From the NCBI RefSeq assembly GCF_030384885.1, contig NZ_CP128613.1: a stretch of DNA of 64,000 bases, one strand, 5' to 3'. The translations under genes and the position numbers were made by a program. Source of the stretch: Escherichia coli (GTDB lineage: Bacteria; Pseudomonadota; Gammaproteobacteria; Enterobacterales; Enterobacteriaceae). Of the stretch, positions 17,810 to 38,783 are shown in pieces. The stretch's first letter is position 1. Each line of letters begins with the position of its first letter. The notes beneath the pieces were generated by a model that saw nothing but the letters and a program-made list of their open reading frames with translations, searched no databases and was not told where the DNA came from.

Positions 17810-20254
17810 ATGATGATTTTGAGTATTCTCGCTACGGTTGTCCTGCTCGGCGCGTTGTTCTATCACCGCGTGAGCTTATTTATCAGCAGTCTGATTTTGC
17901 TCGCCTGGACAGCCGCCCTCGGCGTCGCTGGTCTGTGGTCGGCGTGGGTACTGGTGCCTCTGGCCATTATCCTCGTGCCATTTAACTTTGCGCCTATGCG
18001 TAAGTCGATGATTTCCGCGCCGGTATTTCGTGGATTCCGTAAGGTGATGCCACCGATGTCACGCACTGAAAAAGAAGCGATTGATGCAGGCACTACCTGG
18101 TGGGAAGGCGACTTGTTCCAGGGTAAGCCGGACTGGAAAAAGCTGCATAACTATCCGCAGCCGCGCCTGACCGCAGAAGAGCAAGCGTTTCTCGACGGCC
18201 CGGTAGAAGAAGCCTGCCGGATGGCGAATGATTTCCAGATTACTCATGAGCTGGCTGATTTGCCGCCGGAGCTGTGGGCGTACCTTAAAGAGCATCGCTT
18301 CTTCGCGATGATCATCAAAAAAGAGTACGGCGGGCTGGAGTTCTCGGCTTATGCCCAATCTCGTGTGCTGCAAAAACTCTCCGGCGTGAGCGGGATCCTG
18401 GCGATTACCGTCGGCGTGCCGAACTCATTAGGCCCGGGCGAGCTGCTGCAACATTACGGCACTGACGAGCAGAAAAATCACTATCTGCCGCGTCTGGCGC
18501 GTGGTCAGGAGCTCCCTTGCTTTGCACTGACCAGCCCGGAAGCGGGTTCCGATGCGGGCGCGATTCCGGATACCGGGATTGTCTGCATGGGCGAGTGGCA
18601 GGGCCAGCAGGTGCTGGGGATGCGACTGACCTGGAACAAACGCTACATTACGCTCGCGCCAATTGCTACCGTGCTTGGGCTGGCGTTTAAACTCTCCGAC
18701 CCGGAAAAACTGCTGGGTGGTGCAGAAGATTTAGGCATTACTTGTGCGCTGATCCCGACCACCACGCCAGGCGTGGAAATTGGTCGTCGCCACTTTCCGC
18801 TGAACGTACCGTTCCAGAACGGACCGACGCGCGGCAAAGATGTCTTCGTACCGATCGACTACATTATCGGCGGACCAAAAATGGCCGGGCAAGGCTGGCG
18901 GATGCTGGTGGAGTGTCTCTCCGTGGGCCGCGGCATCACCCTACCTTCCAACTCAACCGGCGGCGTGAAATCGGTAGCGCTGGCAACGGGCGCGTATGCG
19001 CACATTCGCCGTCAGTTCAAAATCTCTATCGGTAAGATGGAAGGGATTGAAGAGCCGCTGGCGCGTATTGCCGGGAACGCTTATGTAATGGATGCTGCGG
19101 CATCGCTGATTACCTACGGCATTATGCTCGGTGAAAAACCTGCCGTGCTGTCGGCTATCGTTAAGTATCACTGTACCCACCGCGGGCAGCAGTCGATTAT
19201 TGATGCGATGGATATCACCGGGGGCAAAGGCATTATGCTCGGGCAAAGCAACTTCCTGGCCCGTGCTTACCAGGGCGCACCGATTGCCATCACCGTTGAA
19301 GGGGCCAACATTCTGACCCGCAGCATGATGATCTTCGGTCAGGGAGCGATTCGTTGCCATCCGTACGTGCTGGAAGAGATGGAAGCGGCGAAGAACAATG
19401 ACGTTAACGCGTTCGATAAACTGCTATTCAAACATATCGGCCACGTCGGCAGTAACAAAGTTCGCAGCTTCTGGCTGGGCCTGACGCGCGGTTTAACCAG
19501 CAGCACACCAACCGGCGATGCCACTAAACGTTATTATCAGCACCTGAACCGCCTGAGTGCCAACCTCGCCCTGCTTTCTGATGTTTCGATGGCGGTGCTG
19601 GGCGGCAGCCTGAAACGTCGCGAACGCATCTCGGCACGTCTGGGGGATATTTTAAGTCAGCTTTACCTCGCCTCTGCCGTTCTGAAGCGTTATGACGACG
19701 AAGGCCGTAATGAAGCCGACCTGCCGCTGGTGCATTGGGGCGTACAGGATGCGCTGTATCAGGCTGAACAGGCAATGGACGATTTACTGCAAAACTTCCC
19801 GAACCGCGTGGTTGCCGGGCTGCTGAATGTGGTGATCTTCCCGACCGGACGCCATTATCTGGCACCGTCTGACAAACTGGATCATAAAGTGGCGAAGATT
19901 TTACAAGTGCCTAACGCCACCCGTTCACGTATTGGTCGCGGTCAGTACCTGACGCCGAGCGAGCATAACCCGGTTGGTTTACTGGAAGAGGCGCTGGTGG
20001 ATGTGATTGCCGCCGATCCGATTCATCAGCGGATCTGTAAAGAGCTGGGTAAAAACCTGCCATTTACCCGTCTGGATGAACTGGCGCACAACGCGCTGGC
20101 AAAGGGGCTGATTGATAAAGATGAAGCCGCTATTCTGGTGAAAGCTGAAGAGAGTCGTCTGCGCAGTATTAACGTTGATGACTTTGAGCCGGAAGAGCTG
20201 GCGACGAAGCCGGTAAAGTTGCCGGAGAAAGTGCGGAAAGTTGAAGCCGCATAA
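17810..20254 (+). CDS. fadE: acyl-CoA dehydrogenase
   Basis: ORF 17732..20254 trimmed to [11 protein letters not shown] (814 aa); N-terminal TM segments plus acyl-CoA dehydrogenase domains. Confidence 0.9.
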
Positions 20255-20262
20255 TTGAATAA

Positions 20263-20286
20263 CGGAGCCGAAAGGCTCCGTTTCAT
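20263..20286 (+). terminator. intrinsic terminator after fadE
   Basis: CGGAGCC-GAAA-GGCTCCG followed by TTTC. Confidence 0.5.
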
Positions 20287-20296
20287 TATCCGCTAA

Positions 20297-20770
20297 TTAT
20301 TTAAAATTAAAGCCATCCGGATGATTTTCCAGGCTGCCGGTCAACGCCGCGAATAGCACCGTTTTACCATCAATCGAAAGCGCATCATTCACATTCAACC
20401 AGGTGAGTTTCTCTTGCGACGTTTTCTCATCAATGGTCGAGAACAGCCCCGTCATCTGATTAGATTTCTCGGACCACATCACAGCGATACGTTGCGAGCC
20501 ACAGTCATGCGGTTTGCACGCGCTCATCACCTGATACGTCTCATCTCCCAACGTTACGGTTTGTGCAGGGGTATAAGTCCCGCCTTTCATCACCCAGGCA
20601 GGCAGCTTATGCCCTTGCACCATCTGATTAAACGCAGCTTTGGTGGTTTCGCCCTTTGCAAGGCTGCTAATGGTTAAATCATCCTGCGCCATTGCACTGG
20701 TGGCGATGACCAGAGCGGCGACTGTTGTTATTGCCTTAAACATCATTCCTCCCGAGCTTATCCTGCCCAT
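20297..20770 (-). CDS. ivy: inhibitor of vertebrate (C-type) lysozyme, periplasmic
   Basis: 157 aa with signal peptide; contains the Ivy loop motif CKPHDC. Confidence 0.85.
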   Translation of the reverse strand: MGRISSGGMMFKAITTVAALVIATSAMAQDDLTISSLAKGETTKAAFNQMVQGHKLPAWVMKGGTYTPAQTVTLGDETYQVMSACKPHDCGSQRIAVMWSEKSNQMTGLFSTIDEKTSQEKLTWLNVNDALSIDGKTVLFAALTGSLENHPDGFNFK

Positions 20771-20923
20771 GTTATTAACCTCCTAAAGCCTGGCGATAAC
20801 ACGATAATTTGCAAATCAGATATTTCCAATATCAGCATTTGTTATCAATTTATTCTGCGCTAAGGCAACTGCCTGATAAGGTGTTAAAGTTATAAAACCC
20901 TTCACATAAAGGAGTTGTACACC

Positions 20924-21694
20924 GTGCCTGGCTTGAAGATTACGCTTTTGCAGCAACCACTGGTGTGGATGGATGGTCCTGCCAACCTGCGCCATTTTGA
21001 TCGTCAACTAGAAGGTATTACCGGGCGCGATGTGATCGTTCTACCGGAGATGTTTACCAGCGGCTTTGCCATGGAAGCGGCAGCTTCGTCGCTAGCACAA
21101 GATGACGTAGTGAACTGGATGACAGCTAAAGCGCAGCAGTGCAATGCGCTGATTGCAGGCAGTGTTGCATTACAAACGGAGTCTGGTTCGGTTAACCGCT
21201 TTTTGCTGGTTGAGCCGGGCGGCACGGTACATTTTTATGATAAGCGTCATCTGTTCCGAATGGCAGATGAGCATCTGCATTATAAAGCGGGCAATGCGCG
21301 AGTGATTGTGGAATGGCGCGGCTGGCGTATTTTGCCGCTGGTGTGCTACGACCTGCGTTTTCCGGTGTGGTCGCGCAATCTCAACGATTATGACCTCGCC
21401 ATCTACGTTGCCAACTGGCCTGCACCGCGCTCTCTGCACTGGCAGGCATTGCTGACGGCCCGCGCGATTGAGAATCAGGCGTATGTGGCGGGATGCAATC
21501 GCGTCGGCAGCGATGGCAACGGCTGCCATTATCGCGGTGACAGCCGGGTGATTAATCCACAGGGCGAGATTATTACTACTGCCGACGCGCATCAGGCAAC
21601 GCGCATTGATGCCGAGTTGTCGATGGCGGTGTTAAGGGAATATAGAGAAAAGTTTCCAGCATGGCGGGATGCGGATGAGTTTAGGTTGTGGTGA
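20924..21694 (+). CDS. yafV: nitrilase-family omega-amidase (2-oxoglutaramate amidase)
   Basis: ORF 20915..21694; GTG start at 20924 preceded by AAAGGAG gives 256 aa; CN-hydrolase fold motifs. Confidence 0.85.
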   Translation: MPGLKITLLQQPLVWMDGPANLRHFDRQLEGITGRDVIVLPEMFTSGFAMEAAASSLAQDDVVNWMTAKAQQCNALIAGSVALQTESGSVNRFLLVEPGGTVHFYDKRHLFRMADEHLHYKAGNARVIVEWRGWRILPLVCYDLRFPVWSRNLNDYDLAIYVANWPAPRSLHWQALLTARAIENQAYVAGCNRVGSDGNGCHYRGDSRVINPQGEIITTADAHQATRIDAELSMAVLREYREKFPAWRDADEFRLW

Positions 21695-21734
21695 GTGGGG
21701 GTTGTGTTTAGGGCCGGGGAGAGTCGGGGTAAGA

Positions 21735-22808
21735 CTACGAAAGCCCGCTCCCAGCAAGGACTGACGCCAGATAGTTTCTGTCCATGGCTGCTTTTCGCAT
21801 CTTACGTCTTAACCCTGCCTTGAATACCTTATCATTCGTTAAAATATTAATAGCGATGTGCCGTATCCCTGAAAATAATTCTGCGGCGTTTCCTCTTCGT
21901 ATTTTGCAGTCGTCTTCATTCATTACCACGTCCAGACGCCAGTGCAGCTTATTCTCCACGTGCCAGTGATTTCGGATCGCTGTGGCGAACTTTTCTGCGG
22001 TTAAATCAGCAGAACTGATATAATATCTGACCGTCATTTCTGGCTCTTTCTTTTGTTCTGCTATTATTGACCGAAAGGAGAATGCCACGCATAATTTCTT
22101 CAGTCCTTTCCATTCAAACGTGAAATCAATAAGTTCATCACGGACATCGCAAACAATATGAAGACGGATTTCTTCTCTGCCGTGACTCTTTTCACTCATT
22201 GCGTAACTGTCATGCTCTGGATTATTTAATTCTTTCAGCGGAAATTTTTCCTCGAAGGCTTTATTTAGCCGCCCCTGGTTTCCTTTTACAGCGAATAAAT
22301 AATCACCTCCCTGTTTTTGTATCTTCTCTGCAATATCTTTCTGGCAACCCATCGCATCAGTTGTGATGATTTTTCCTTTAATATCCAGAATGTTAAGAAG
22401 TTCTGGGATAGCTGTAATCTCATTGGATTTCTCATCCGTCCTGATCTGTCCGATGACCAGACTGTGCATTGTTGAGAATGCACTAATGACATGAATCGCT
22501 CCCCTGCGGCGACTCTTGTCATAAGAATGCCGGAGTGTTTTTCCATCAATTGCGATGACGTCTTTATCATCTGAAGTATGGCAATCTCGCATCCAGTTAA
22601 TAAAGCACTCGTGAAATTTTGAAGGACTGATACAGGATACAACTCTGGCGATGGTATCGTGAACAGGAATACCATTTTCAAAATCACCATATTGTTTTAA
22701 AAAATCGCGATGTGCTTCCCCAAACTCCTCTATATGTTCCCAGCCTTCTGCACCAGAAATAACGGCACAAATAGTCAACAGTAGAATATCCGACAATTTA
22801 TGTTTCAC
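21735..22808 (-). CDS. H-repeat-associated protein (ISAs1-family transposase-like); N-terminus apparently frameshifted
   Basis: 357 aa ORF starting at GTG; an ATG with strong SD (AAGGAG) at 22872 opens a 24-codon ORF ([24 protein letters not shown]) in another frame that stops at the start of the long ORF. Confidence 0.8.
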
Positions 22809-22999
22809 TTTTGCAGGATTGTCTGTAATCGGGAATAACAGAAATATGTTCCATCAATTTTTTAAGTTCCATTCTTTTCTCCTTAATTATGTAAGGAGTA
22901 TTTGATCATGTATAAGCAATAAAAAAACAGCTTCAGGCAATGAGGAATATCTCAATTTTTAAACATAAAATGCGAATTGTTTAGTACAAAAAAGCAGCG

Positions 23000-24889
23000 T
23001 TAAGTGAGTAGGCCACCGGAACCTCCCCGACAGCCTCTCGCAGAACCGTACGTGAAACTCTCGCTTCATACGGCTCCCGTCAGGCAAACGCGCTTCCTGG
23101 TCCTGCTTTCCAGTGGGCAAACAACTCCGGCTTCTCTTTTGACAGCCTTTCCATTAGCTGACACGCCTTCGTCTTTCTATACCGCAGGGTTTTATATTTC
23201 TTTCTCGCCCACGCAATCAGCGTCAGATTAATATATCTGCATACTTTCTTCATCGCTGATTTGTGGTATCTCGCGTAATAATTCAGCCACCCCGATATTA
23301 TCGGATTCAGCCACTTCGCAATATCTTCGAGACTCATCTCCACCCTGCGTCTGATCCACAGTTTCCTGAGTTTTCCAATCATGCCTTTCTGCGCACGGTT
23401 ACTCGCCGCCGGGCTGAAACTCGTAAAGAGGTTTCCCCGCCGGTGGTTACGTGCTCTTCGCGCTCTGAACGTATACCCCAGAAAATCAAACTGCACTGTT
23501 TCATGGTTCGCCTGTCGTTCGCTGTCTTTGCAGTAAACTATTTTCGTTTTCTCCGGATGTAATTCCAGTCCACATTCCTGAAAACGTTTTGCCAGCTTAT
23601 TCAGTAATTCCTCTGCCTGTTGTTTACTGCCACAATGAATTAATCCATCATCTGCATAACGGCACCAGGGAATTTCCGGATAATGTAACGTCAGCCATTT
23701 ATCAAACACATAGTGCAGAAATAAATTCGCCAGTACCGGGCTGATGACTCCACCCTGTGGCGTACCTTTATTTCTTTCCTTCAGTGTTCCATCCGGCATC
23801 TGCACCGGCGCTGTCAGCCACCGGCGAATAGACAGTCTTACCCATTTATCCGCACAATGTTTATCCACTGCCCTGAGTAATAAATCGTGGGGGATATTAT
23901 CGAATAACCCTTTAATATCAAACTCAAGACACCAGTCGTATTGCCAGCAACGTTTTCTGGTGACTGCTATTGCATCCAGCGCTGATTTTCCATGCCGGTA
24001 TCCGTATGAATCATTCAGGAAATAACGCTCCACTAATGGTTCAAACGTTACCAGCACCGTCATCTGCGCTATTCGATCGCTTACTGTCGGTATTCCTAAA
24101 AGTCTTTTGCTGCCATCCTTCTTCGGAATTTCCACCGCACGCACTGGCGGCGGCATCCAGCTTCCCGACGATAACCTGTTCCAGATTTTGTACAGATTTC
24201 CTTTCAGATCCCGCTCAAAATCTTTCAGCGTCTGGTTATCCACTCCGGCAGCTCCGGCATTCGCCTTTATCCGCCGGTACGCTTCCACCACATGCAATTT
24301 ACTGACCTGAAACGGTTTTGTCTGTTCACACACAGCCTCCTCCTGCCTACAGTTGGGCTGTGATGCAGACTGCCCGACGCTGTCCCTTCGCTCCACGTTC
24401 ATTACAAACGCTTCCTCACTACTACGAACAGCTCTGCCCCGGTTTCGCACATCGATACTCTCATACTCATAATTTCGGTTATTTGTATTTCTCTCTTGAC
24501 ATTGCGACGACCGGTTCCCGTAGTTCCTGCAAAGAGCCCGATACAGCGTCATGCCTGCTATACACCGGACATCATTCACGCAGCATTCGGAATTCACCCG
24601 TAAATTAATCCCGGCGGTATCACGAAACCTCCGGTTTTGATGTCACTTAGGACTAACGACGTTTCAACACAGGTTCGGGTTTACTCATCTCACTGTATCT
24701 CACATAGGATCAGATCTCGTCTGATCGTTCCCCCTGCGCTCACTACCATGGCTCTTTACCACAGCAGCCGGGGTTGTTTGGGACCGACTTCCGACAGCAG
24801 ATCCCGGTGGGCCTGCCACCATCTCTTCACAAGCTTATGCTTATTACATGCAAAACGTCCCGTTTTGCATCTTTGTGCCTACGGCACAC
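23000..24889 (-). mobile_element. group II intron (approximate boundaries), carrying an intron-encoded protein
   Basis: Minus strand: candidate 5' end GUGUG at 24889; domain V GAGCCGTATGAAGCGAGAGTTTCACGTACGGTTC at 23078..23041 immediately after the IEP stop; 3' end not precisely mapped. Confidence 0.6.
23080..24402 (-). CDS. group II intron reverse transcriptase/maturase, no endonuclease domain
   Basis: ORF 23080..24597 trimmed to MNVERRD; RT motifs including YADD (CRYADDGLIHC) and a maturase (X) domain; ends without an HNH region. Confidence 0.85.
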   Translation of the reverse strand: MNVERRDSVGQSASQPNCRQEEAVCEQTKPFQVSKLHVVEAYRRIKANAGAAGVDNQTLKDFERDLKGNLYKIWNRLSSGSWMPPPVRAVEIPKKDGSKRLLGIPTVSDRIAQMTVLVTFEPLVERYFLNDSYGYRHGKSALDAIAVTRKRCWQYDWCLEFDIKGLFDNIPHDLLLRAVDKHCADKWVRLSIRRWLTAPVQMPDGTLKERNKGTPQGGVISPVLANLFLHYVFDKWLTLHYPEIPWCRYADDGLIHCGSKQQAEELLNKLAKRFQECGLELHPEKTKIVYCKDSERQANHETVQFDFLGYTFRARRARNHRRGNLFTSFSPAASNRAQKGMIGKLRKLWIRRRVEMSLEDIAKWLNPIISGWLNYYARYHKSAMKKVCRYINLTLIAWARKKYKTLRYRKTKACQLMERLSKEKPELFAHWKAGPGSAFA

Positions 24890-25138
24890 CGTGATCTTTC
24901 CCTAGCATATCGCCCTGACGCGCCGCTGGTTTTACGCTCATGGTATCTCCTTAAATTATTTTGGGCTGTATTCTGGCACCATAGACTCTGATTTATCACC
25001 AATACTCAAAACACCATTAATCAGAAAAATCAGCATCTACATATAATTAATTAGAATAATTCAATAAATTATTTTTCTGCCATTATTGACTTGGCTTTTT
25101 ATTGAATGAAATAAAAGAAAAAATCATCACCTAAAAAT

Positions 25139-25756
25139 TTAGTAGACGTTTCTTGTTACTATATGCGCATCATCAACCAAACGCCCGGAACTATCTGTTT
25201 CCTCATGATCAGATACACACATTTCTGGTGCATATCCTGAAAAATCAGAAGTCGCATTCGGATAATTTGTGACATCTAATCTTAATTTAAAACTATATAT
25301 CTCCCAAAATAATTCAGGAGATCTTTCAGGCAAAAAATCATAAATATCAATAAGTATCTTCATCCCCCTTACACGGAACTCCCTCCTGTGTCCATATAAC
25401 GGATGATCTTTACATCCACCAATGATTTGGGACAGAAAAAATCTTGCTCGTGTTTCTGTTACTCCCCAATTAGCAACAGGTTGAAAAATTTCAGAACCAT
25501 CTTTCACACTAAAAAATTTACATTGGTAAAAGCCTGAAAACGTACCATATTCTCCAATATATTTTTCTGATTCATTATAATCCATGCAAACAAAAACATA
25601 TTCAATATCTCCATTTTTTGCCATAACATCATGGATAATAAATGGATTGTTTTGTGATACAGAGAAAATACTATGTACGTTCTGCACTTCAACATTTAAA
25701 GCCCATATATCACTGGGAAAGAAAATCAAACATATCAAATACAACCAAAATTTCAT
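25139..25756 (-). CDS. putative immunity protein for the upstream Rhs C-terminal toxin
   Basis: 205 aa, low GC, hydrophobic N-terminus; start overlaps the Rhs stop (TAATG); the usual position of rhsI genes. Confidence 0.45.
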   Translation of the reverse strand: MKFWLYLICLIFFPSDIWALNVEVQNVHSIFSVSQNNPFIIHDVMAKNGDIEYVFVCMDYNESEKYIGEYGTFSGFYQCKFFSVKDGSEIFQPVANWGVTETRARFFLSQIIGGCKDHPLYGHRREFRVRGMKILIDIYDFLPERSPELFWEIYSFKLRLDVTNYPNATSDFSGYAPEMCVSDHEETDSSGRLVDDAHIVTRNVY

Positions 25757-26748
25757 TATTGCGTACCACTCGGACAACTCATATCATCAGGTATAGTAAT
25801 TATTACATCTTGAATGCCCATATCCTTCTCTAGCCCTGGTATTTCAAGAATCAACTTTCCGGGATTTTTATCCATTAACTTTTGCTGAGGGTTTATATTA
25901 TTTCTACGCAAAGCCGAATCATCAACGATGTCCCTGACACAACTAAACAGCTGAGTACCATCAGCTTTTAATTTTCCGCTAATAGAATTTATTTTATTTC
26001 TGGCAGATGGTTTATCCCTAAATCCCCATTGAGAAGGGATAATTGCTGTCGAGTCAGTTGTTACTCCGTATTTATCCAAATTTGAAGGACTAGTGTTATA
26101 TCCACCACCTTTCCCAACTAGTCTCGAATTTCCTTGTAATACTCGTGCGCTGCCTATACATTCTTTTAACCCCAAAGGATCTATATACCCCACAGGATCC
26201 AGCGGATACGCATACAGGTTCCAGCCCCCCTTCAGCCCTATCGGATCCTGGGTAATATACCTCCCCTGCAACGGGTCATAGTACCGGTGATGGTTGTAAT
26301 ACAGTCCCGACTCCTCATCATACTGCTGCCCCGGCAGACGGAGTGACTGTTGCAGGTGCAGCGTGCTTTCCTCTCCCAGCAGGTTTCCCCACTCGTCATA
26401 CTCCCCCTGCCACGCCGTTTCCCCTTCCGGGCTGATGAGCGCCTGCGGCAGCCCACGGTGGTCACAGTGGTAAAGATGAAGTTTCCTCTCCGGGATGTAT
26501 TCCGCCTCCATCTGCGCCGCCATCTGTTCCGCCGTCAGCCCGCACTGCGCAAGCCACTGCTGGCTTTCCTCACTCACCGCGCCCGTGCGCAGCTCCCGCT
26601 CCAGCCTTCCCAGCATCACCGCCAGCTCCGCCGGTAGCGTCACCCCCGTGTCCTCCTGCAACATCTCCGCCAGGCTATCCTGCATCGCCGTCTGGCCGGA
26701 AAGCCTGCAACAGCAGCAGGCTACGACACAATGGAATGAAGCACTCAA
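25756..26748 (-). CDS. orphan Rhs fragment: C-terminal part of Rhs core plus variable toxin tip
   Basis: Contains the Rhs core end [52 protein letters not shown] followed by ~139 aa of low-GC unrelated sequence; the large N-terminal Rhs body is absent. Confidence 0.8.
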
Positions 26749-27079
26749 AACCCGCGCACAGAGTAGCCCACAGTTGCGTGGCTGGTTGCAGACCCGCCAG
26801 GACTTACATGCTTTTGCAGATCTCGTGATGCAGCGCGAGAAAGAGGGATTAACCCTTTCCTATATCAAAAATGTCATCTGGCAGGCGGAGCGGGGGCTGG
26901 GGCAGGAAACGCCTGTGGAATCTCTGCTGACGCAGTACCAGGATGCCCGTGCGCAGAAGCAGAATACAGATGCGCTGGAAAAACAGATTAACGAGCGGAT
27001 GGACGGCGTGTTAAGTCGCTGGCTGCTGCTGAAGAATAATACGATACCGACGATAAAAAAAGACATTGAATTTCAATAA
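26705..27079 (+). pseudogene. 3' remnant of an unidentified gene, abutting the truncated Rhs fragment head-to-head
   Basis: ORF 26495..27079; only the part beyond ~26705 has plausible coding character, the upstream part is antisense to the Rhs core. Confidence 0.3.
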
Positions 27080-27105
27080 CATTCATGAATACAAAGGAGC
27101 TTTAA

Positions 27106-27585
27106 ATGGCGAATTTAATTTATTTAACACTAAATGGTGATAATCAAGGGCTCATTTCAAGTGGTTGTTCATCACAACCATCCATTGGAAATAAAGCTCA
27201 AACAGCACACATTGATCAAATTATGATTTATGAATTCATGCATGGATTAAATCGAGATCAAAACGTCAACCATCATCATTTGACAATAAAAAAACCTATA
27301 GATAAAGCATCACCCTTATTAGGCAAAGCAATTTGCGACAATGAATTATTGACATGTGATTTTTCCTTTTATCGTACAAATAAATTTGGAATTAATGAAC
27401 TGTACTATAAAATCAAATTAACTGGAGCAAAGATAAGCGACATTCATGTCTCTATATCACATATTGTTGTTGATAACAGCGTTCAACCCGAAGAGTCAGT
27501 TTCTTTCAGTTATGAGTCAATTATATGGGAGCATTGTTCCGCTGGCACTAGTGCATACAGTTTATGGGAAGATCGTCTTTTTTAA
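27106..27585 (+). CDS. hcp: Hcp-family protein (type VI secretion tube/effector-carrier)
   Basis: 159 aa; Hcp-like pattern LIYLTLNGD..HHHLTIKKPIDKASPLLGKAI..SVSFSYESIIWEH; SD AAAGGAG upstream. Confidence 0.8.
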   Translation: MANLIYLTLNGDNQGLISSGCSSQPSIGNKAQTAHIDQIMIYEFMHGLNRDQNVNHHHLTIKKPIDKASPLLGKAICDNELLTCDFSFYRTNKFGINELYYKIKLTGAKISDIHVSISHIVVDNSVQPEESVSFSYESIIWEHCSAGTSAYSLWEDRLF

Positions 27586-27605
27586 AAATATCTGGGATTA
27601 TTATA

Positions 27606-28502
27606 ATGGCTAACAATATTTTACACTCTTCAACATCAGACAGTGAAAACAAAAATACAAGCACTGACAGTACGTTATTTAATGAAAAATTCCCATTTCA
27701 ACTAAGGCAAGATTTCGCATCAAGAATAACAGAAGATGAAAGTGATTTTTTTAAATGGAAAAAAATAAGAGAGTTGGCATTTGTGAGCAATCATAAAGAA
27801 TGGAATAAATATGACTTATTAATTTTAAAATCTGTTAATGAAATCAACATTCATTTGTCCAGCACTCCATACTTTCAGCCGTTGGATTGGTATATAATAA
27901 AAGCCATGCTCTGGACTGAAAACGATGCGGCAAATACTTCTCAGTGGAATGGTTATCCATTACAAATTGGTCGTTTTCGGAAAGATAAAGCGATGCCTGC
28001 TTTAATTTCTGGAGAAAAATCCACAGCCCTTGTTACCCCCCCACAATGGAGAAACAAAGCATTCAATGGGTTAAAAGATCCAGAAAGAAATTACTGGGCA
28101 AAAGAACAAATAACTGGCTCTCCAGAAGAGAATATCAAAGCAGCAATTACTTACTTAATGATGAAACTTTCTAATACAAAGGAAGAGTCAACTATCGTTC
28201 AATATGACTCAACTCTATATAGCACCATTGTCCAAAAAGGCGATTTGGCTGACAACATCAGAAAAGAGAGAAAAACGACCATACCTAACTTAACGAAAAA
28301 CAACCCTGGAAAAAATCTCGATAAAATACACCCGGGAGATATTTTATATTATCAAAAAGCATCCATGAAAGTAATAATTACTGGATGGAAACCTATCACA
28401 ATAAAAAATGTAGCGATGAATTATAATGGTGGTGGAGATCCCAAGTATGCAATAAAACTTCAGTTCGTTTATACATTGCTCACAAAAAACAGAGTGTTAT
28501 AA
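27606..28502 (+). CDS. candidate Hcp-linked effector: cysteine-free protein with putative lysozyme-like region and C-terminal LysM-like segment
   Basis: ORF 27564..28502 trimmed to MANNILHSS (298 aa); no signal peptide, no Cys; segment WTENDAANTSQWNGYPLQIGRF and TIVQKGDLADNI..IHPGDILYY; family assignment tentative. Confidence 0.4.
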   Translation: MANNILHSSTSDSENKNTSTDSTLFNEKFPFQLRQDFASRITEDESDFFKWKKIRELAFVSNHKEWNKYDLLILKSVNEINIHLSSTPYFQPLDWYIIKAMLWTENDAANTSQWNGYPLQIGRFRKDKAMPALISGEKSTALVTPPQWRNKAFNGLKDPERNYWAKEQITGSPEENIKAAITYLMMKLSNTKEESTIVQYDSTLYSTIVQKGDLADNIRKERKTTIPNLTKNNPGKNLDKIHPGDILYYQKASMKVIITGWKPITIKNVAMNYNGGGDPKYAIKLQFVYTLLTKNRVL

Positions 28503-28504
28503 GA

Positions 28505-28954
28505 ATGGGAAAAATAACAATTATTCTACTGCTTACATTCTCATGTACAAAAGGTCTGGCATTTGACATTTCCATGTCTAAAGAATGTAGTGGCGTTGAT
28601 GAACTTGAATTTGTTGATTGTGTTAAAAACTCATTTATTATGAGCACTATTACACTTAAAAAAGCAGAAGTAAATATAAAAGAGAAAATTAAAAAATGGA
28701 ATAACGATGAGGACGAAGCAATAAGAAAAGAAGCAGTTATTTCTTTAAAAAGACTAGAATCTTCTAATCGGGAATTTATACGTTACAGATTTGCTCAATG
28801 CTCTTTTGCTCTAACCTGGGGGGCCAGAGTAGGACGTCTGGCATTCTCTCGACTATATCCATGCTATACTGAGTTAAACAAAATTAGAGCCATGCAACTA
28901 AACAATGCTTTCATTTCAGATTTTCAAAACCCAGATGAGATATCCAGCAAATGA
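28505..28954 (+). CDS. secreted small protein, candidate immunity protein (DUF1311/LprI lysozyme-inhibitor-like pattern)
   Basis: 149 aa; Sec-type signal peptide MGKITIILLLTFSCTKGLA; conserved-Cys pattern with REFIRYRFAQC. Confidence 0.4.
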   Translation: MGKITIILLLTFSCTKGLAFDISMSKECSGVDELEFVDCVKNSFIMSTITLKKAEVNIKEKIKKWNNDEDEAIRKEAVISLKRLESSNREFIRYRFAQCSFALTWGARVGRLAFSRLYPCYTELNKIRAMQLNNAFISDFQNPDEISSK

Positions 28955-29307
28955 TTATTATAAAATTAAGATTAACATTACTATTTATACTGGCCACAAT
29001 TACATATTCAGTACAATCAGACGAATTCGATGATCAAACCACTTACACGAAATACCGTTATTTTTCCACAGCCATACCAGAAGATATACGTAGATTTATG
29101 TTCTACGTAGATTATTGCTTTGTAGATTTAGCATTCGATATCGAAACTGACTCAATGACAGCTAAAAATGATATTATTAATGAATGTACTCCATTAAAAG
29201 AAAGAAACAAAACATTAAAAGAAAAATATAAAAAAGATGAAGAGATAATAGCAATTCTTTCCATTGCAGATGATACCATTTTAATTTATGAAGAATTAAA
29301 AAAATAA
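28951..29307 (+). CDS. secreted small protein, second candidate immunity protein
   Basis: 118 aa; signal peptide MIIIKLRLTLLFILATITYSVQS; 4-nt overlap with the upstream gene; very AT-rich. Confidence 0.35.
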   Translation: MIIIKLRLTLLFILATITYSVQSDEFDDQTTYTKYRYFSTAIPEDIRRFMFYVDYCFVDLAFDIETDSMTAKNDIINECTPLKERNKTLKEKYKKDEEIIAILSIADDTILIYEELKK

Positions 29308-29433
29308 CTCACATGCAATTCACTGGCAATATATATTATAATTTTATAAAAAAAATAATATTTACATTATAGAAATACTCAGCTCCTGTTTGCTGCCCGC
29401 CCTAAACTACAGGCGGCAGCATAACAATAACGA

Positions 29434-30234
29434 TTACTGGAATCGACTCACCAAGTCTTTCACCATCGATACATATGTTTTTTGTTTCAAATTAAACAGT
29501 TGCACTTCCGTAACATGGTCCTTTGATAGTTCTTTATTGCTCGTTTTTGTTATTCCAGCCGGCGGAAAAATTACTCTCGATTCATAATTCACCGGCGACC
29601 AGGTAGCCCACTCACCTGTTGCCACATCCACCAGCGTGAAACGTACCAGGTAGCGCAGGGAGATAGTGTCAGTGAGTTTTTCATTTTTATAGTCGGACCA
29701 TACTGTTGATTTCAGCGCAGAGTCATATTTTCCTGTCTGCAACGTATCATGGTAAACAATAATCGCTTTCTGATGCCCTTTCGCAGCCACAAAACGCAAT
29801 GCCTGCATCCAGTTCATATTTTCAGCACTGGCAACATCCTCGTTCTCATTTTTATCTTTATTTTTGTTACAAGTCAGAGGCTTTTGCCTGTCCGGGATAC
29901 CAGAGAATGTGGAAACAGTATAATATTTTCTCATCTCCTCCTGCATAATGGTTTCCGGTGCGCGACTGCCAGACTGGACAAGTATTACGGGAGAATTGAG
30001 AGGCACACGAAACTCATCTCCTTCAAGCGCAGCCTGAATATCCTCCTCGGATACAGCCAGAGTGGTTTCATTACCGAATAAATCTTTGTCTGTCAGTTGC
30101 GGGGGAATGTTTTTATTAATATTACTTTGTGTAACTTGAGCTTTTTTCTTTTTTTCATCAATAGAAGATTGAGAGGCACATCCTGCAAGCAGCGAGAATA
30201 ATACACATATGCAACAAACTTTTTTTGAATTCAT
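29434..30234 (-). CDS. yafT: lipoprotein of unknown function
   Basis: 266 aa with lipobox LLAGC; position adjacent to the tRNA-Asp gene. Confidence 0.7.
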
Positions 30235-30500
30235 AATCGGACACTCCCTCGCCTGTCATAATGATTAGAATATTTAGCACTGATAACGGACTCTAATTAT
30301 ATACCCCACTTAAATAATAACAAACAAAATCAACATGAAATATACATTCATTTAGTCAATATAAAATTATTCTCTAAAAATATATTTAAGTTGAATGGTT
30401 CGATATCATTATTGAATTTTAATAAATGAGACAACAAGCGAGAGTTACGCACTTACGCCAGAGTAAAATCATTGAACAGAGAAATAGCGGGATTTAAATG

Positions 30501-30532
30501 CAAAAAACCGCAAAATTAAAAATCTTGCGGTT
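30501..30532 (-). terminator. intrinsic terminator downstream of tRNA-Asp (aspV)
   Basis: On the minus strand AACCGCAA-loop-TTGCGGTT followed by TTTTTG. Confidence 0.5.
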
Positions 30533-30559
30533 CTCTGAACTCATTTTCATGAGTAAATT

Positions 30560-30636
30560 TGGCGGAACGGACGGGACTCGAACCCGCGACCCCCTGCGTG
30601 ACAGGCAGGTATTCTAACCGACTGAACTACCGCTCC
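30560..30636 (-). tRNA. aspV: tRNA-Asp (GUC)
   Basis: Exact 77-nt match to the remembered E. coli tRNA-Asp sequence, CCA-encoded. Confidence 0.95.
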
Positions 30637-30768
30637 GCGTTGTGTTCCGTTGGGAACGAGGCGAATATTACGGATTGCCTCACCCTTCGTCAACGGTTTT
30701 TCTCATCTTTTGAATCGTTTGCTGCAAAAATCGCCCAAGTCGCTATTTTTAGCGCCTTTTACAGGTAT

Positions 30769-31500
30769 TTATGCCCGCCAGAGGCAGCTTCCGCCCTTTT
30801 TCTGCACCAGATCGAGACGGGCTTCATGTGCCGCAAGCTCTTCATCTGTCGCAAAAACAACGCGTAACTTACTTGCCTGACGCACAATGCGCTGAATTGT
30901 TGTTTCACCTTGTTGCTGTTGTGTCTCTCCTTCCATCGCAAAAGCCATCGACGTTTGACCACCAGTCATCGCCAGATAAACTTCCGCAAGGATCTGGGCA
31001 TCGAGTAATGCCCCGTGCAGCGTTCGTTTACTGTTATCTATTTCATAACGAGCACATAACGCATCAAGGCTGTTGCGCTTGCCAGGAAACATTTTCCTCG
31101 CCACCGCAAGGCTATCTGTGACCTTACAGAAGGTATTGGTCTTCGGAATATCGCGCTTGAGCAACGAAAACTCATAGTCCATAAAGCCGATATCGAACGC
31201 TGCGTTATGGATCACGAGCTCCGCGCCGCGAATATAGTTCATGAACTCATCGGCTACTTCGGCAAATGTGGGCTTATCGAGCAAAAACTCATCGGCAATA
31301 CCATGTACGCCAAAGGCTTCTGGATCCACCAGCCGATCGGGTTTGAGATAAACGTGAAAGTTATTGCCCGTCAGGCGACGGTTCACCACTTCAACGGCAC
31401 CAATCTCAATGATCTTGTGGCCTTCATAGTGCGCACCAATCTGGTTCATACCGGTGGTTTCGGTATCGAGAACGATCTGGCGTGTAATTGCAGTGCTCAT
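30769..31500 (-). CDS. dnaQ: DNA polymerase III epsilon subunit (3'-5' proofreading exonuclease)
   Basis: ORF 30769..31509 trimmed to [17 protein letters not shown] (243 aa). Confidence 0.95.
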
Positions 31501-31564
31501 AGCGGTCATTTATGTCAGACTTGTCATTTTACAGTTCGATTCAATTACAGGAAGTCTACCAGAG

Positions 31565-32032
31565 ATGCTTAAACAGGTAGAAATTTTCACCGATGGTTCG
31601 TGTCTGGGTAATCCTGGACCCGGGGGTTACGGCGCTATTTTACGCTATCGCGGACGCGAGAAAACCTTTAGCGCTGGCTACACCCGCACCACCAACAACC
31701 GTATGGAGTTGATGGCCGCTATTGTCGCGCTGGAGGCGTTAAAAGAACATTGCGAAGTCATTTTGAGTACCGACAGCCAGTATGTCCGCCAGGGGATCAC
31801 CCAGTGGATCCATAACTGGAAAAAACGTGGCTGGAAAACAGCAGACAAAAAACCAGTAAAAAATGTCGATCTCTGGCAACGTCTTGATGCTGCATTGGGG
31901 CAGCATCAAATCAAATGGGAATGGGTTAAAGGCCATGCCGGACACCCGGAAAACGAACGCTGTGATGAACTGGCTCGTGCTGCGGCGATGAATCCCACAC
32001 TGGAAGATACAGGCTATCAAGTCGAAGTTTAA
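31565..32032 (+). CDS. rnhA: ribonuclease HI
   Basis: ORF 31454..32032 trimmed to [23 protein letters not shown] (155 aa); divergent from dnaQ. Confidence 0.95.
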
Positions 32033-32751
32033 GCCTGTGGTTTACGACATTGCCGGGTGGCACCAACCGCCTGGCGAATTCGTGGCTTGTTTTTACTCTG
32101 TTTCATCGGATTTAGCGTTAAAGGAATAGTCCGTTTCCGGGCAACGATAAGTTGTAAGCAACCAAGCGCAGGAATATGCGCATTCAATAGTTTTCCACCG
32201 TGTTTGTTCCACGGGAGAACGTGGAAACGGCTGGCGTGCAGCACTTCAAAATTCAACAAAGAGAGCCAGTCCAGTTGCCGCATCAGAGTAAACATCCGGC
32301 TGTTATAGGGCGAGTTTTTTCGCAATACCGGCACAAGTTTGCGCAATCCCATTAAACTGATGGGATTAAAGCCACTAATGACCAGCCAGCCATCATCAAT
32401 CAATACCCGATCGGTTTCACGCAATAAACGATGCGGATCGGTGCACCACGGCAATGTATGTGCCAGTAGACAAACATCAACGGATTTATCGGCAAAAGGA
32501 AGATGAAGTGGGTCCGCCTGCACCTGGACGGGCATTCCTTGCGCAGAAACATTCACTTGATGAGAAACCGCGCACGCTTCGCAATTGATTTCTGCGCTTA
32601 AATTGCCAATCTTAAGCAGATGAAAACCATACATTTTAGTGAACCACGGGTTGAGCTGGCGCTCCAGCGCCTTGCGATAAAGCTCTCCCCAGGGCAAATC
32701 GCCCCAGCAATCAGGAGCCACGACAGTTTGAGGGACTCTTGCTGGTTTCAT
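32029..32751 (-). CDS. yafS: SAM-dependent methyltransferase-like protein
   Basis: ORF 32029..32769; start possibly the internal Met; synteny between rnhA and gloB. Confidence 0.8.
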
Positions 32752-32781
32752 CACAACCTTCCGTTTCACACTGAGAGGTAA

Positions 32782-33540
<759 letters not shown>

Positions 33541-33611
33541 TAAAACTTTCTTGTCATCGGCTCCGTTCGCCGTTATGATCGGTCGTCTTTTAAGCAACTA
33601 TTGACACACAC

Positions 33612-34970
33612 ATGAAGGCAAAAGCGATATTACTCGCCTCTGTCCTGCTCGTGGGTTGCCAGAGTACCGGCAACGTTCAACAGCACGCACAGAGCCTTTC
33701 TGCAGCTGGTCAAGGGGAAGCAGCAAAGTTTACAAGTCAGGCACGATGGATGGACGATGGGACGTCTATCGCGCCAGATGGTGACTTGTGGGCTTTCATT
33801 GGCGACGAGCTAAAGATGGGAATTCCGGAAAATGACCGGATTCGCGAACAGAAACAGAAATATTTACGCAATAAGAGCTATCTCCACGATGTAACTTTAC
33901 GGGCAGAGCCGTATATGTACTGGATAGCTGGGCAAGTTAAAAAACGTAACATGCCTATGGAACTGGTACTACTACCCATAGTGGAGAGCGCTTTTGATCC
34001 TCACGCGACGTCTGGCGCCAATGCCGCAGGCATCTGGCAGATCATTCCGAGCACGGGGCGCAATTATGGTTTGAAACAGACCCGCAATTATGACGCGCGT
34101 CGCGATGTTGTTGCTTCAACGACTGCCGCGCTGAACATGATGCAGCGTCTGAACAAGATGTTTGACGGCGACTGGCTTCTGACCGTAGCGGCTTATAACA
34201 GCGGCGAAGGTCGGGTCATGAAGGCAATTAAAACGAACAAAGCGCGTGGGAAATCCACGGACTTCTGGTCGTTACCGTTGCCGCAGGAAACGAAACAGTA
34301 CGTGCCTAAAATGCTGGCATTGAGTGATATTCTCAAAAACAGCAAGCGTTATGGTGTACGTCTGCCAACGACTGATGAAAGCCGTGCTCTGGCGCGTGTG
34401 CACCTGAGCAGCCCGGTTGAAATGGCGAAGGTTGCAGATATGGCGGGAATTTCCGTCAGCAAGCTGAAGACATTCAACGCTGGCGTGAAAGGCTCCACGC
34501 TGGGCGCAAGTGGCCCGCAGTACGTGATGGTGCCAAAGAAGCATGCAGATCAACTGCGTGAATCTCTGGCTTCAGGCGAAATTGCTGCTGTACAGTCGAC
34601 GCTGGTTGCCGACAATACGCCGCTTAACAGCCGTGTTTACACCGTACGCTCTGGCGACACGCTTTCAAGTATCGCTTCACGTCTCGGCGTAAGCACCAAA
34701 GATTTGCAGCAGTGGAACAAACTGCGCGGATCTAAGCTGAAGCCAGGCCAAAGTTTGACGATTGGTGCAGGCAGTAGCGCACAGCGGTTGGCAAACAACA
34801 GCGATAGCATTACGTATCGTGTGCGCAAAGGCGATTCGCTTTCAAGCATTGCTAAACGCCACGGCGTGAACATCAAAGATGTGATGCGCTGGAACAGCGA
34901 CACTGCGAATCTGCAACCAGGCGATAAGCTGACGTTGTTTGTGAAAAACAACAACATGCCAGATTCCTGA
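33612..34970 (+). CDS. mltD: membrane-bound lytic murein transglycosylase D
   Basis: 452 aa; lipoprotein signal (LLVGC), SLT domain and two C-terminal LysM repeats. Confidence 0.9.
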   Translation: MKAKAILLASVLLVGCQSTGNVQQHAQSLSAAGQGEAAKFTSQARWMDDGTSIAPDGDLWAFIGDELKMGIPENDRIREQKQKYLRNKSYLHDVTLRAEPYMYWIAGQVKKRNMPMELVLLPIVESAFDPHATSGANAAGIWQIIPSTGRNYGLKQTRNYDARRDVVASTTAALNMMQRLNKMFDGDWLLTVAAYNSGEGRVMKAIKTNKARGKSTDFWSLPLPQETKQYVPKMLALSDILKNSKRYGVRLPTTDESRALARVHLSSPVEMAKVADMAGISVSKLKTFNAGVKGSTLGASGPQYVMVPKKHADQLRESLASGEIAAVQSTLVADNTPLNSRVYTVRSGDTLSSIASRLGVSTKDLQQWNKLRGSKLKPGQSLTIGAGSSAQRLANNSDSITYRVRKGDSLSSIAKRHGVNIKDVMRWNSDTANLQPGDKLTLFVKNNNMPDS

Positions 34971-34985
34971 CAAACCAGATAATAA

Positions 34986-35016
34986 AAAGGCACCGATTCC
35001 CCCGGTGCCTTTTTTA
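34986..35016 (+). terminator. intrinsic terminator after mltD (bidirectional with yafE)
   Basis: GGCACCG-ATTCCCC-CGGTGCC followed by TTTTTTATTT. Confidence 0.6.
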
Positions 35017-35017
35017 T

Positions 35018-35788
35018 TTATGCCGCTTTATGTGCTTCTACCATGATGATATCACTGGTGAAAGAGCCATCATTCTGCAAGGCAAAATACGTTTTCACCT
35101 CTGTCGATGCGCTCTGTTGGTAAATGCGAATAGCGTCTACTAACGCTTCTGGCGTACGCATTCTCACGACCCATGAAGAAAATTCCAGCGGTAACTTATC
35201 TGTAATTAAATTATCAACTATCAGATTGGCTTCATTGATTAACGTCAACCACTCACCGCTGGCGTAGTTTCGTACGTGTGAGGTATCGCGTAATGCTTCT
35301 GCCGTCTGTAACCAGATGTCGCGCACTGGGTGACCCGGAGACATTACGTCCATCACAATCAGCTTACCGCCAGGTTTCAATATCCGATTCACTTCACGCA
35401 GTGCTGCACCAACATCATGCCAGTGATGGGCAGAATAACGGCTGATAACAATATCAAATGCGTTATCGGCAAATGGCAGACTTTCGGCATAACCCTGGCG
35501 GGTGGTGATATTTTTCAGTTGCCGGGCTTCCGCAGCTTGTGCCACGACATCCAGCATTTGGGCAGATAAGTCATACGCCACCACCGCGCTAACGTTCTGC
35601 GCAGCGACAAAGCTGGCATGCCCTGCTCCGCAGCCCATATCAAGTACACTTGCATCAGGATAATCAGCCAGACGCACCGCCAGGCGCTGTAAATCTCGCC
35701 CGGATGCATGTACGGTACTGGTTAAATACTCACTGGCCTGCGAGCTAAACTGCTTTTCTACGTGGTCATGGTGGGATTGTGTTGTCAT
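35018..35788 (-). CDS. yafE: SAM-dependent methyltransferase
   Basis: 256 aa; methyltransferase motif I VLDMGCGAGH. Confidence 0.8.
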   Translation of the reverse strand: MTTQSHHDHVEKQFSSQASEYLTSTVHASGRDLQRLAVRLADYPDASVLDMGCGAGHASFVAAQNVSAVVAYDLSAQMLDVVAQAAEARQLKNITTRQGYAESLPFADNAFDIVISRYSAHHWHDVGAALREVNRILKPGGKLIVMDVMSPGHPVRDIWLQTAEALRDTSHVRNYASGEWLTLINEANLIVDNLITDKLPLEFSSWVVRMRTPEALVDAIRIYQQSASTEVKTYFALQNDGSFTSDIIMVEAHKAA

Positions 35789-35864
35789 TGCGCTGTCCTT
35801 TTATTGTTTGATTAAAAAGGGCAGCGCCAAACGTTGGTCTGCCCTGTGGCAGACCTGACATACC

Positions 35865-36716
<852 letters not shown>

Positions 36717-36905
36717 CTACTGTTATAGGGATTTTAGCTCACTCTTTCAACGAGCAATTGTATATTGTTATGTAAGCAAGTGCTTACACCGGTCAGAAAT
36801 TTGCTCATTATTGAGAACATTAAATCGGATGACATATCACGCATCCTGATGGTTTAATGACAAATAAATTCAAAATATCTCATCTATTTTGCAACAGGAG
36901 CAAAA

Positions 36906-37820
36906 ATGAAAGCCACGTCGGAAGAACTCGCCATTTTTGTTTCGGTCGTCGAAAGCGGCAGCTTTAGCCGGGCAGCGGAACAATTAGGGCAAGCAAACTC
37001 AGCGGTAAGCCGGGCGGTGAAAAAGCTGGAGATGAAACTTGGCGTTAGCCTGCTTAATCGGACCACGCGGCAACTTAGCCTGACGGAAGAAGGCGAGCGT
37101 TATTTTCGTCGCGTACAGTCAATTTTGCAGGAGATGGCAGCGGCAGAATCAGAAATTATGGAGACGCGTAATACACCGCGTGGACTGTTGCGCATCGATG
37201 CCGCAACTCCAGTGGTGCTGCACTTTCTGATGCCGTTAATTAAGCCTTTCCGTGAACGCTATCCGGAAGTTACTTTATCGCTAGTCTCCTCCGAAACGAT
37301 TATTAATTTGATCGAAAGAAAAGTGGATGTCGCGATACGCGCCGGTACGTTAACGGATTCCAGCTTACGTGCCAGGCCGTTATTTAACAGTTATCGAAAA
37401 ATTATCGCCTCCACCGATTATATTTCCCGCTATGGGAAGCCAGAAACGCTCGACGATTTAAAGCAACATGTTTGCCTGGGATTCACTGAACCCGCTTCCC
37501 TTAATACTTGGCCGATAGCCTGTAGCGATGGACAATTACATGAGGTGAAGTACGGTTTGTCATCCAATAGTGGGGAAACACTGAAACAGCTTTGCCTGAG
37601 TGGCAACGGGATTGCGTGTTTGTCCGACTACATGATCGACAGAGAAATCGCTCACGGAGAATTGGTGGAGTTAATGGCAGATAAAGTGTTGCCAGTGGAA
37701 ATGCCATTTAGTGCAGTCTATTACAGCGACCGTGCGGTAAGTACGCGTATCCGGGCTTTTATCGATTTCCTTAGCGAGCATGTAAAAACAGCTCCCGAAG
37801 GAGCTGTCAGAGAGTCTTAA
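36906..37820 (+). CDS. yafC: LysR-family transcriptional regulator
   Basis: 304 aa; N-terminal LysR HTH. Confidence 0.85.
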
Positions 37821-38620
37821 TCCCATTCAGGAGCCAGACCTGCCGGGCTAACCAGGCGGTCGTTGCAATCCAGTGCGGCGATCGCTTTTTTATCTTCGGC
37901 ATCAAGCTGTAAATTTTGTGCCTTAAGATTACTCTCCAGGTTTTCACGTTTAGTAGAAGAAGGAATTACTGAGTAACCTTCCCCCATAGCCCACGCCAGA
38001 ATCACTTGTGCCGGAGTCGCATTGTGTTTAGCTGCAATACGAGCAATAACCTCATCTTTCAGGGCATTCCCATATGCCAGCGTCATATAGGAAGTAATAT
38101 GGATGCCGTGCTGTTTAGCCCAATCGACTACTTTACGGTATTGCAGATAAGGAGAGAGTTCAATCTGGTTGGTAGCGATATTTTCAGCGCCAACAGCAGC
38201 AATCGCTTTTTCCATCAATGGGATCGTGAAGTTGGAAATACCGATCTCACACGTCAGACCTTGTTTTTTGGCTTCCAGCAGCGCCTGCATAAACTCTTCA
38301 ACAGAGACTTCATCGTTTGGTGACGGCCAGTGGATTAGCGCCAGATCAACATAATCGGTACGCAATTTTTGCAGACTCTCTTTCAGACTCGGGATCAGTT
38401 TGTCTTTGCTGAGATTTTCAATCCAGATTTTAGTGGTGATATAGAGTTCATTACGAGGCACGCCACTTTCTGCAATCGCCTGACCTACTGCGGCTTCGTT
38501 ATCATAGATTTGTGCGGTATCGATTGCGCGATAACCAAGTTCAAGCGCCGTTTTCACAGATGAAATAACAACGTCGTCTTTCAGACGAAAAGTACCTAAA
38601 CCAAATGCAGGGATAGCCAT
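37817..38620 (-). CDS. dkgB: 2,5-diketo-D-gluconate reductase B (aldo-keto reductase)
   Basis: 267 aa aldo-keto reductase; convergent 4-nt overlap with yafC. Confidence 0.9.
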
Positions 38621-38742
38621 AATATGCCTCTTTTGATGCTATGTTCGTTAACTGAGATGATTATGGACTTTAGACTGTTGCGGGAAAAGGGCGTAAAACG
38701 CAGAGGATTTTTGCGATTTTGGCAATAATAGAAATACAGACG

Positions 38743-38771
38743 AAAAAAAAACCTCGAGCGTTAACTCGAGG
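38743..38771 (-). terminator. rRNA operon terminator
   Basis: Minus strand CCTCGAG-TTAACG-CTCGAGG followed by a T9 run. Confidence 0.55.
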
Positions 38772-38783
38772 CTTCTTAATAAG

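Follow-up and report, generated by a model that had tools for sequence, protein, structure and literature searches.

In EHEC, the T6SS island at aspV comprises 37 kb and is organised as a tssB operon and an hcp3 operon that diverge from a bidirectional promoter, the tssB operon being polycistronic (PMC5363993, PMC13141884). This island is the T6SS-2 of EHEC, and its fate bears on the locus described below: degeneration of T6SS in E. coli has been described, and in EHEC O157 the decay of T6SS-2 proceeded via point mutations and a 28-bp duplication, not via a large deletion (PMC12981562). From the same source come the name Hcp1/Z0248 for the hcp gene, the effector/immunity function of Etse4 and Etsi4, as established in EHEC, and the splitting of the O157 etse4 gene by a nonsense mutation into Z0247 and Z0246 (PMC12981562).

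The 64,000-nucleotide stretch of DNA analysed here (the window) carries the E. coli aspV/dnaQ island, with dnaQ (30769-31509), the tRNA-Asp gene aspV (30563-30636) and a yafT-like gene (29434-30234), all on the minus strand, and with fadE, ivy and yafV to the left of the island. The closest complete genome, and one with an intact arrangement, is that of E. coli 2013C-4282 (NZ_CP027579.1; coordinates of its locus are prefixed L003 below), the flanks of which are about 99.98% identical to those in the window; 2013C-4282 is to be taken as a close relative and not as the parent. Positions 18443-26677 of the window (8.2 kb) are collinear with this genome with four mismatches, and positions 26692-39042 (12.3 kb) with a single mismatch; in 2013C-4282, the two collinear blocks lie 25,892 bp apart. 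There, the order is immunity gene, rhs, vgrG and hcp, the last three on the minus strand, followed on the plus strand by tssB through tssM, vasL and hcp. The interval missing from the window contains, on the rhs side, the 5' 3.26 kb of the 4185-nt rhs gene, vgrG and hcp (all minus strand) and the divergent intergenic region; on the plus side, it contains tssB, tssC, tssE, tssF, tssG, tagH, tssJ, tssK, icmH/tssL, tssH, vasI, tssA and tssM, and it ends within the VasL-domain gene, of which it takes in codons 1-321. None of this DNA was found elsewhere in the 64-kb window, tssM and the other tss genes being absent. We consider it highly probable (roughly 0.9) that the region is a non-functional scar of a 25,892-bp deletion in the aspV T6SS island, produced by a microhomology-mediated, RecA-independent event.

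The course of events can be envisaged as follows. The ancestral island would have had two arms that diverged from a bidirectional promoter, the minus-strand arm made up of the immunity gene, rhs, vgrG and hcp, and the plus-strand arm of tssB through tssM, vasL, hcp and an effector/immunity pair. A RecA-independent, microhomology-mediated event would then have removed 25,892 bp, beginning at about codon 1087 in rhs and extending as far as codon 321 in the ImpA_N + VasL gene. Three-quarters of rhs, counted from its 5' end, would have gone with this piece, together with vgrG, one of the hcp genes, the promoter region and every tss structural gene. Since the outermost genes are convergent around the divergent operons, the 3' ends of rhs and vasL would now lie head to head; left behind would be two pseudogene fragments, a spurious 194-aa ORF and the intact hcp, etse4-like and etsi4-like genes, all three deprived of a promoter.

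The alignment to 2013C-4282 places the breakpoint at 26677/26692. On the left, the Rhs homology ends at 26677 (…CCGCCAGGCTA); on the right, identity with the VasL gene begins at 26692 (CTGGCCGGAAAG…). The first-pass annotation had proposed that two gene remnants meet here, which proved right; its location of the meeting point, 26.70-26.75 kb, did not, the actual breakpoint being about 15-60 nt further left. Neither is the junction a clean two-way join, as the remnants are separated by 14 nt (26678-26691, TCCTGCATCGCCGT) that match neither flank and have one exact occurrence in the reference interval, inside tssM; by our own arithmetic, the chance expectation for an exact 14-mer is about 2e-4 in 25.9 kb, both strands considered. 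The filler is bordered by microhomologies, TA (26676-77) with the Rhs flank and CTG (26692-94) with the VasL flank, and the resulting plus-strand 19-mer TATCCTGCATCGCCGTCTG (26676..26694) equals L003 30219-30237, within the deleted interval and inside tssM (29707-33141), in the same orientation. The join can be read as rhs, TA, 14 nt of tssM, CTG, vasL, which implies one jump of about 22.0 kb and another of about 3.9 kb. Each nucleotide of the junction can be assigned to rhs, tssM or vasL, and neither extended homology nor an IS end nor a recombinase site is present; what is found are collinear flanks, microhomology in the range of 1-10 nt at each breakpoint and a templated insertion, as befits a deletion junction. 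A different Rhs allele was considered as the source of the 14 nt and rejected: the Rhs matches in 2428 E. coli records all stop at 26676-26680, and the 14 nt correspond to tssM exactly. Only 14 nt from the junction, at 26664, the window shows a private C>T substitution, which changes Val to Met in the dead Rhs frame; the base is C in every other Rhs copy examined, and not one of the 2428 matching records reaches 100% identity over this stretch.

Most likely, the junction was produced by one template-switching event of replication or repair. The first jump would have led from rhs to tssM at TA and the second from tssM to vasL at CTG, with 14 nt of tssM copied in between. This reading is preferred because the two tssM breakpoints are only 14-19 nt apart in an interval of 26 kb, because the private C>T substitution lies so close to the junction, and because 5426 complete genomes contain no intermediate junction, i.e. 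neither rhs|tssM nor tssM|vasL joined at the same nucleotides, although the lack of intermediates in one genome collection is weak evidence against two successive deletions. The chance of a substitution falling this near to the junction is about 0.7% by our own estimate (flank density, 5 in 20.6 kb); still, the change at 26664 could be an unrelated SNP. The main competitor, which we regard as unlikely yet deserving of attention, is a succession of two independent illegitimate deletions (e.g., tssM-vasL of 3.9 kb, then rhs-tssM of 22 kb) that left 14-19 nt of tssM in place. Each of the two joins, taken singly, resembles an ordinary microhomology deletion, rhs|tssM and tssM|vasL deletions are known in other strains that carry the island, and the island decays repeatedly. 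However, this scenario requires that two unconnected breakpoints lie no more than 19 nt apart although 26 kb were available to them, for which we calculate a chance of roughly 1e-3, and the rhs|tssM and tssM|vasL joins of other genomes are at different nucleotides: the searches for intermediates returned other deletions (rhs|tssM in 2018-10-1CC and tssM|vasL in SW07091), with the pieces 233-515 nt further apart. That both joins show microhomology, that the short insert is templated and that a mutation lies nearby, taken together, favours a single event over two deletions.

To the right of the junction, the plus-strand segment 26693..27079 retains codons 322-449 and the stop codon of a gene of the ImpA_N + VasL type (TagA-like), the bases 26693-27076 being the 128 final codons of this parental T6SS gene. 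The first-pass annotation had taken the stretch from about 26705 to 27079 for real coding sequence, possibly the tail of the gene that originally preceded hcp, and both suggestions are borne out. The translation of 26705-27076, i.e. the last 124 residues of the 194-aa ORF discussed below, matches Pfam VasL (PF12486; E = 1.4e-15) over profile positions 36-146 of 147, so that the first 35 profile positions are missing and about three-quarters of the domain are kept. From L003 34114 on, the DNA is 100% identical to the 3' end of the gene for a 'VasL domain-containing protein' in 2013C-4282, and in intact loci the gene that precedes hcp is, indeed, one with ImpA_N and VasL domains. A profile search could thus name the parent as a VasL-domain T6SS gene; the segment does have homologues, and no intact gene was found to span the region. 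The distance to hcp is likewise as first reported: with the stop codon occupying 27077-27079 and hcp starting with its ATG at 27106, the spacer measures 26 nt.

The intact homologue of O157 combines ImpA_N (6.5e-20, residues 12-113) with VasL (6.9e-23). In the window, the C-terminal VasL domain is present, whereas the ImpA_N residues fall in the deleted DNA and there is no complete frame with its own start; the position after tssM in a T6SS structural operon is seen in relatives and is not found in the window. Judged from its sequence, the segment is a pseudogene remnant of the ImpA_N + VasL (Pfam PF06812 + PF12486) family. In 2013C-4282, the parent gene is open for 449 aa, and the 'frameshifted' flag on it reflects only a one-base 3' difference from the 469-aa O157 form. 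This difference follows a run of A (window 27050-27079; L006 2830-2910), GACATT here versus GCATT in O157, and there are two natural VasL C-termini: the 449-aa form of the window and 2013C-4282 stops 26 nt before hcp, and the 469-aa form of O157 extends beyond the start of hcp, with an overlap of 35 nt.

To the left of the junction, on the minus strand, lies the Rhs remnant, a core part at 26167..26677 (Pfam RHS, PF03527, 2.6e-15) followed by a C-terminal variable (toxin) region at 25759..26166. It had been noticed before that this fragment lacks a proper 5' region; core end and CT region together account for the final 306 codons of a parent gene that has 1393. The remnant is 99.9% identical to rhs of 2013C-4282 as far as L003 8235. 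The core terminates in the DPLGL motif (26181-26167), in line with the conserved PxxxxDPxGL end of RHS cores, and about 136 codons follow it; the G+C content drops from 62% in the core to 38% in the CT region. A domain search of the parent protein finds DUF6531 and 12 RHS_repeat stretches, whereas the fragment in the window yields no Pfam match to RHS_repeat and has no N-terminal domain or YD/RHS repeat shell, since about 1087 codons are deleted. No further Rhs sequence was found in the 64-kb window. As far as sequence comparison goes, the fragment is the main rhs gene, cut by the deletion, and the locus keeps no full-length rhs.

Directly downstream, a 205-aa gene (25139..25756, minus strand, 33% G+C), the ATG of which overlaps the rhs stop codon (ATGA), is presumed from its position to be the Rhs immunity gene. 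In 2013C-4282, its counterpart, annotated as a 618-nt hypothetical CDS, lies directly downstream of the full-length rhs. The low-GC CT region and the overlapping 205-aa ORF make up a putative toxin/immunity arrangement, and neither the toxin tip nor its partner matched a family in Pfam or NCBIfam. The minus-strand segment 25139-26166 can be described as an uncharacterised putative toxin/immunity pair, and the full-length Rhs of 2013C-4282 bears the same pair. Two mobile elements are located further to the left. At the left edge of the island, beside yafV, there is an ISAs1-family (H-repeat) transposase ORF (21735-22808, minus strand), the counterpart of which is annotated as frameshifted in the near-identical 2013C-4282; ISAs1-family (H-repeat) elements are usual companions of Rhs elements. 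A group II intron at 23003-24820 (minus strand) separates the ISAs1 element from the Rhs immunity gene, with an ltrA reverse transcriptase/maturase ORF at 23080-24597 and with Rfam matches to group-II-D1D4-2 at 24703-24820 (93 bits) and to Intron_gpII at 23003-23078 (63 bits).

The 194-aa plus-strand ORF at 26495..27079 is present in the mechanical ORF list as the first-pass annotation had it, and so is its chimeric make-up, with the antisense of the Rhs core in front. The bases 26495-26677, codons 1-61 of the ORF, are antisense to the Rhs core; the tssM filler and the VasL tail follow. On the opposite strand, the list contains a 330-aa Rhs ORF (25756..26748) which overlaps the 194-aa one and of which the initial 24 codons are antisense of filler and VasL, not Rhs; both frames are open through the junction. 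The G+C content is 62-69% in the region of Rhs overlap and 66-69% at 26400-26700, as against about 30% to each side. The 194-aa ORF is a chimera without biological meaning and not a gene, since inspection of the sequence at its ATG (26495) finds no Shine-Dalgarno element, 61 of its codons are Rhs antisense, and a look-up among about 15 billion proteins found neither its exact sequence nor that of the 330-aa ORF. In annotation, neither the 194-aa nor the 330-aa ORF should be called a gene, the real content of the region being two pseudogene fragments.

These observations bear on the possibility that the remnant is functional, be it as a VasL C-terminal peptide, as a new chimeric protein or as a truncated Rhs toxin translated from an internal start. 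The open frames across the junction and the intact Rhs CT/immunity module speak for it, as does a precedent from Salmonella, where Koskiniemi and colleagues reportedly found in 2014 that recombination can reactivate orphan rhs-CT modules. Against it stand, besides the missing Shine-Dalgarno element, the 61 antisense codons and the lack of matches among 15 billion proteins, the loss of the ImpA_N domain and the transmembrane part of the VasL parent, the failure of an (insensitive) scan to find a plus-strand promoter-like site in 25962-27385, and the disappearance of the T6SS apparatus that either product would need. We regard a function of this kind as very improbable. The remnants are most likely silent, save for possible internal promoters of the immunity gene; the strain has, with high probability, lost the T6SS apparatus of the aspV island, and the scar itself very probably does nothing.

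The first-pass annotation had considered the arrangement consistent with recombination or inversion, and of these the rearrangement scar stands, in the form of the 25,892-bp deletion, whereas the inversion does not. An inversion, alone or with a deletion, that moved the Rhs fragment from elsewhere to vasL would fit the look of the place, as an inversion breakpoint can resemble two head-to-head truncated genes and as Rhs elements, together with the nearby ISAs1 and group II intron repeats, can promote rearrangement. However, even in the intact reference, rhs is a minus-strand gene and comes directly after the T6SS genes; all three retained pieces, i.e. the flanks of 8.2 kb and 12.3 kb and the tssM filler, keep the reference orientation and order, so that neither flank is reversed; and no second breakpoint was found in the window. 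The head-to-head junction needs no inversion, because rhs (minus strand) and vasL (plus strand) already face each other in 2013C-4282. With both flanks collinear with this intact locus, inversion was rejected and we give it hardly any weight.

That the junction is an artefact of assembly or of a chimeric contig, as its absence from the 5426 complete E. coli genomes and from the JGI metagenome contigs could suggest, is least credible of all, given that it recurs in four separately assembled contigs (one of them seen in 8 samples), that it is not located at a repeat and that analogous junctions exist in finished genomes. The identical 31-nt junction CAGGCTATCCTGCATCGCCGTCTGGCCGGAA occurs in GCA_025467095.1, GCA_036346665.1, GCA_038513185.1 and the Logan contig ERR2987533, i.e. 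in three NCBI assemblies and one Logan/SRA contig (the one with 8 samples) from different projects; a search for exact copies of the adjacent 298-aa protein led to these drafts. They are 99.99-100% identical to the window, and each has T at 26664. The scar is genuine and fixed in a lineage, as follows from its identity in four independent draft contigs, and the 31-nt junction offers a clean marker of this lineage. All four contigs start inside or just to the right of the 5' end of the group II intron (24573-24905), for which reason the intron is probably a multi-copy repeat in the genomes that bear the junction.

On the plus strand to the right of the scar, the hcp module has been retained. 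The hcp gene (27106..27585; Hcp1/Z0248 homologue) is intact, with matches to TIGR03344 (1e-58) and Pfam T6SS_HCP and with an AAGGAG ribosome-binding site. It is followed by an effector/immunity pair (27606..28954) consisting of a 298-aa 'LysM' protein, the Etse4 homologue (27606-28502), and a 149-aa DUF1311/LprI-like protein, the Etsi4/Z0245 homologue (28505-28954). The etse4-type gene is uninterrupted in the window and also in 2013C-4282 (L003 35028-35924), the two differing by one missense change (28198 T/A, Val/Asp); a PDB sequence search with the 298-aa effector gave no significant match. RefSeq splits the 2013C-4282 homologue into a partial pseudogene and a 597-nt CDS, a model apparently patterned on the nonsense-bearing O157 allele. 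Next to the pair, a 118-aa AT-rich ORF (28951-29307, plus strand) overlaps the stop of the DUF1311 gene; it is hypothetical in relatives and matches neither a Pfam nor an NCBIfam family, and it could represent a further immunity-like gene in the module linked to hcp. The promoter scan, in which sites were no more numerous than in shuffled sequence, is insensitive and uninformative rather than negative; it returned no consensus sigma-70 site upstream of hcp. Since, in addition, the known promoter region is deleted, hcp and etse4 have probably lost their expression. For the purpose of scoring, strains of this lineage should be regarded as devoid of the aspV T6SS apparatus, yet as carrying hcp, an intact etse4-type effector gene and the immunity gene that goes with it.

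The process is a recurrent one. Among 5426 complete E. coli genomes, 3238 have VasL at close to its full length and 248 have only a part of it. Independent deletions in three other strains also have an endpoint in vasL, with microhomologies of 3-5 nt. In L003 coordinates, E. coli C joins Rhs 8675 to VasL 33879 at TTATC, LR-64-1 joins Rhs 8642 to VasL 34062 at CGGTA, and ETEC4079 joins tssH 27069 to VasL 34114 at CTG; in the window, Rhs 8235 is followed by the 14 nt of tssM and then by VasL 34114, with TA and CTG at the joins. The tssH|vasL deletion of the unrelated strain ETEC4079 (L004 8990-9010) ends at the same vasL nucleotide as that of the window (CGCTG|GCCGG, L003 34114). The two deletions are independent, given that the vasL remnant of ETEC4079 is only 93% identical. 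The shared endpoint could be a coincidence or a preferred deletion endpoint; the chance of one shared endpoint among about seven breakpoints is some 8% by our own arithmetic, and we do not claim a hot spot. A more ambitious reading, according to which the locus is a natural-lineage record of one multi-jump, error-prone (MMBIR-like) event and CGCTG|GCCGG in vasL may be a recurrent deletion endpoint, strikes us as possible and, at present, rather doubtful.

The deletion is an ordinary, known kind of gene-cluster decay that leaves Rhs and VasL pseudogene stubs, and the scar adds one more independent case to the repeated erosion of the aspV island in E. coli. The window resembles other degenerate aspV islands of this species in its insertion site, on the aspV-dnaQ side, and in the retention of hcp, the effector/immunity pair and yafT. 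With E. coli C and LR-64-1, it shares the 5'-truncated rhs that lies head to head with a 5'-truncated vasL and the short microhomology at all junctions, and the remnants in these two strains and in ETEC4079 are partial pseudogenes in RefSeq; it differs from E. coli C and LR-64-1 in its breakpoints and in the templated insertion of 14 nt of tssM, which only the junction of the window has.

Compared with orphan rhs-CT/immunity modules, the Rhs fragment has the same components, namely a 5'-truncated rhs with the core end, the DPxGL motif, a low-GC CT region and an overlapping immunity gene. Classical orphan rhs-CT modules, however, originate by C-terminal displacement and follow a full-length rhs, whereas the fragment in the window is the 3' end of the main rhs itself, which is full-length in 2013C-4282, and no full-length rhs precedes it. 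Similarly, the parent of the VasL remnant, with ImpA_N and VasL domains and a position after tssM in the tssB operon, is like the TagA/TssA-family accessory proteins; unlike the members of this family, the 128 residues kept in the window, with neither ImpA_N nor a start codon, cannot function. Finally, the junction itself, with its microhomologies of 2-3 nt, a templated insert in direct orientation and a nearby mutation, is comparable to MMBIR/FoSTeS-type junctions and to RecA-independent illegitimate deletions in E. coli. It differs from the MMBIR/FoSTeS type in having a single small insert and not multiple large segments, and the mechanism suggested for it is read from the sequence of a natural isolate. 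No new mechanism or gene is indicated; the locus is a neat case, found in nature, of a complex microhomology junction.
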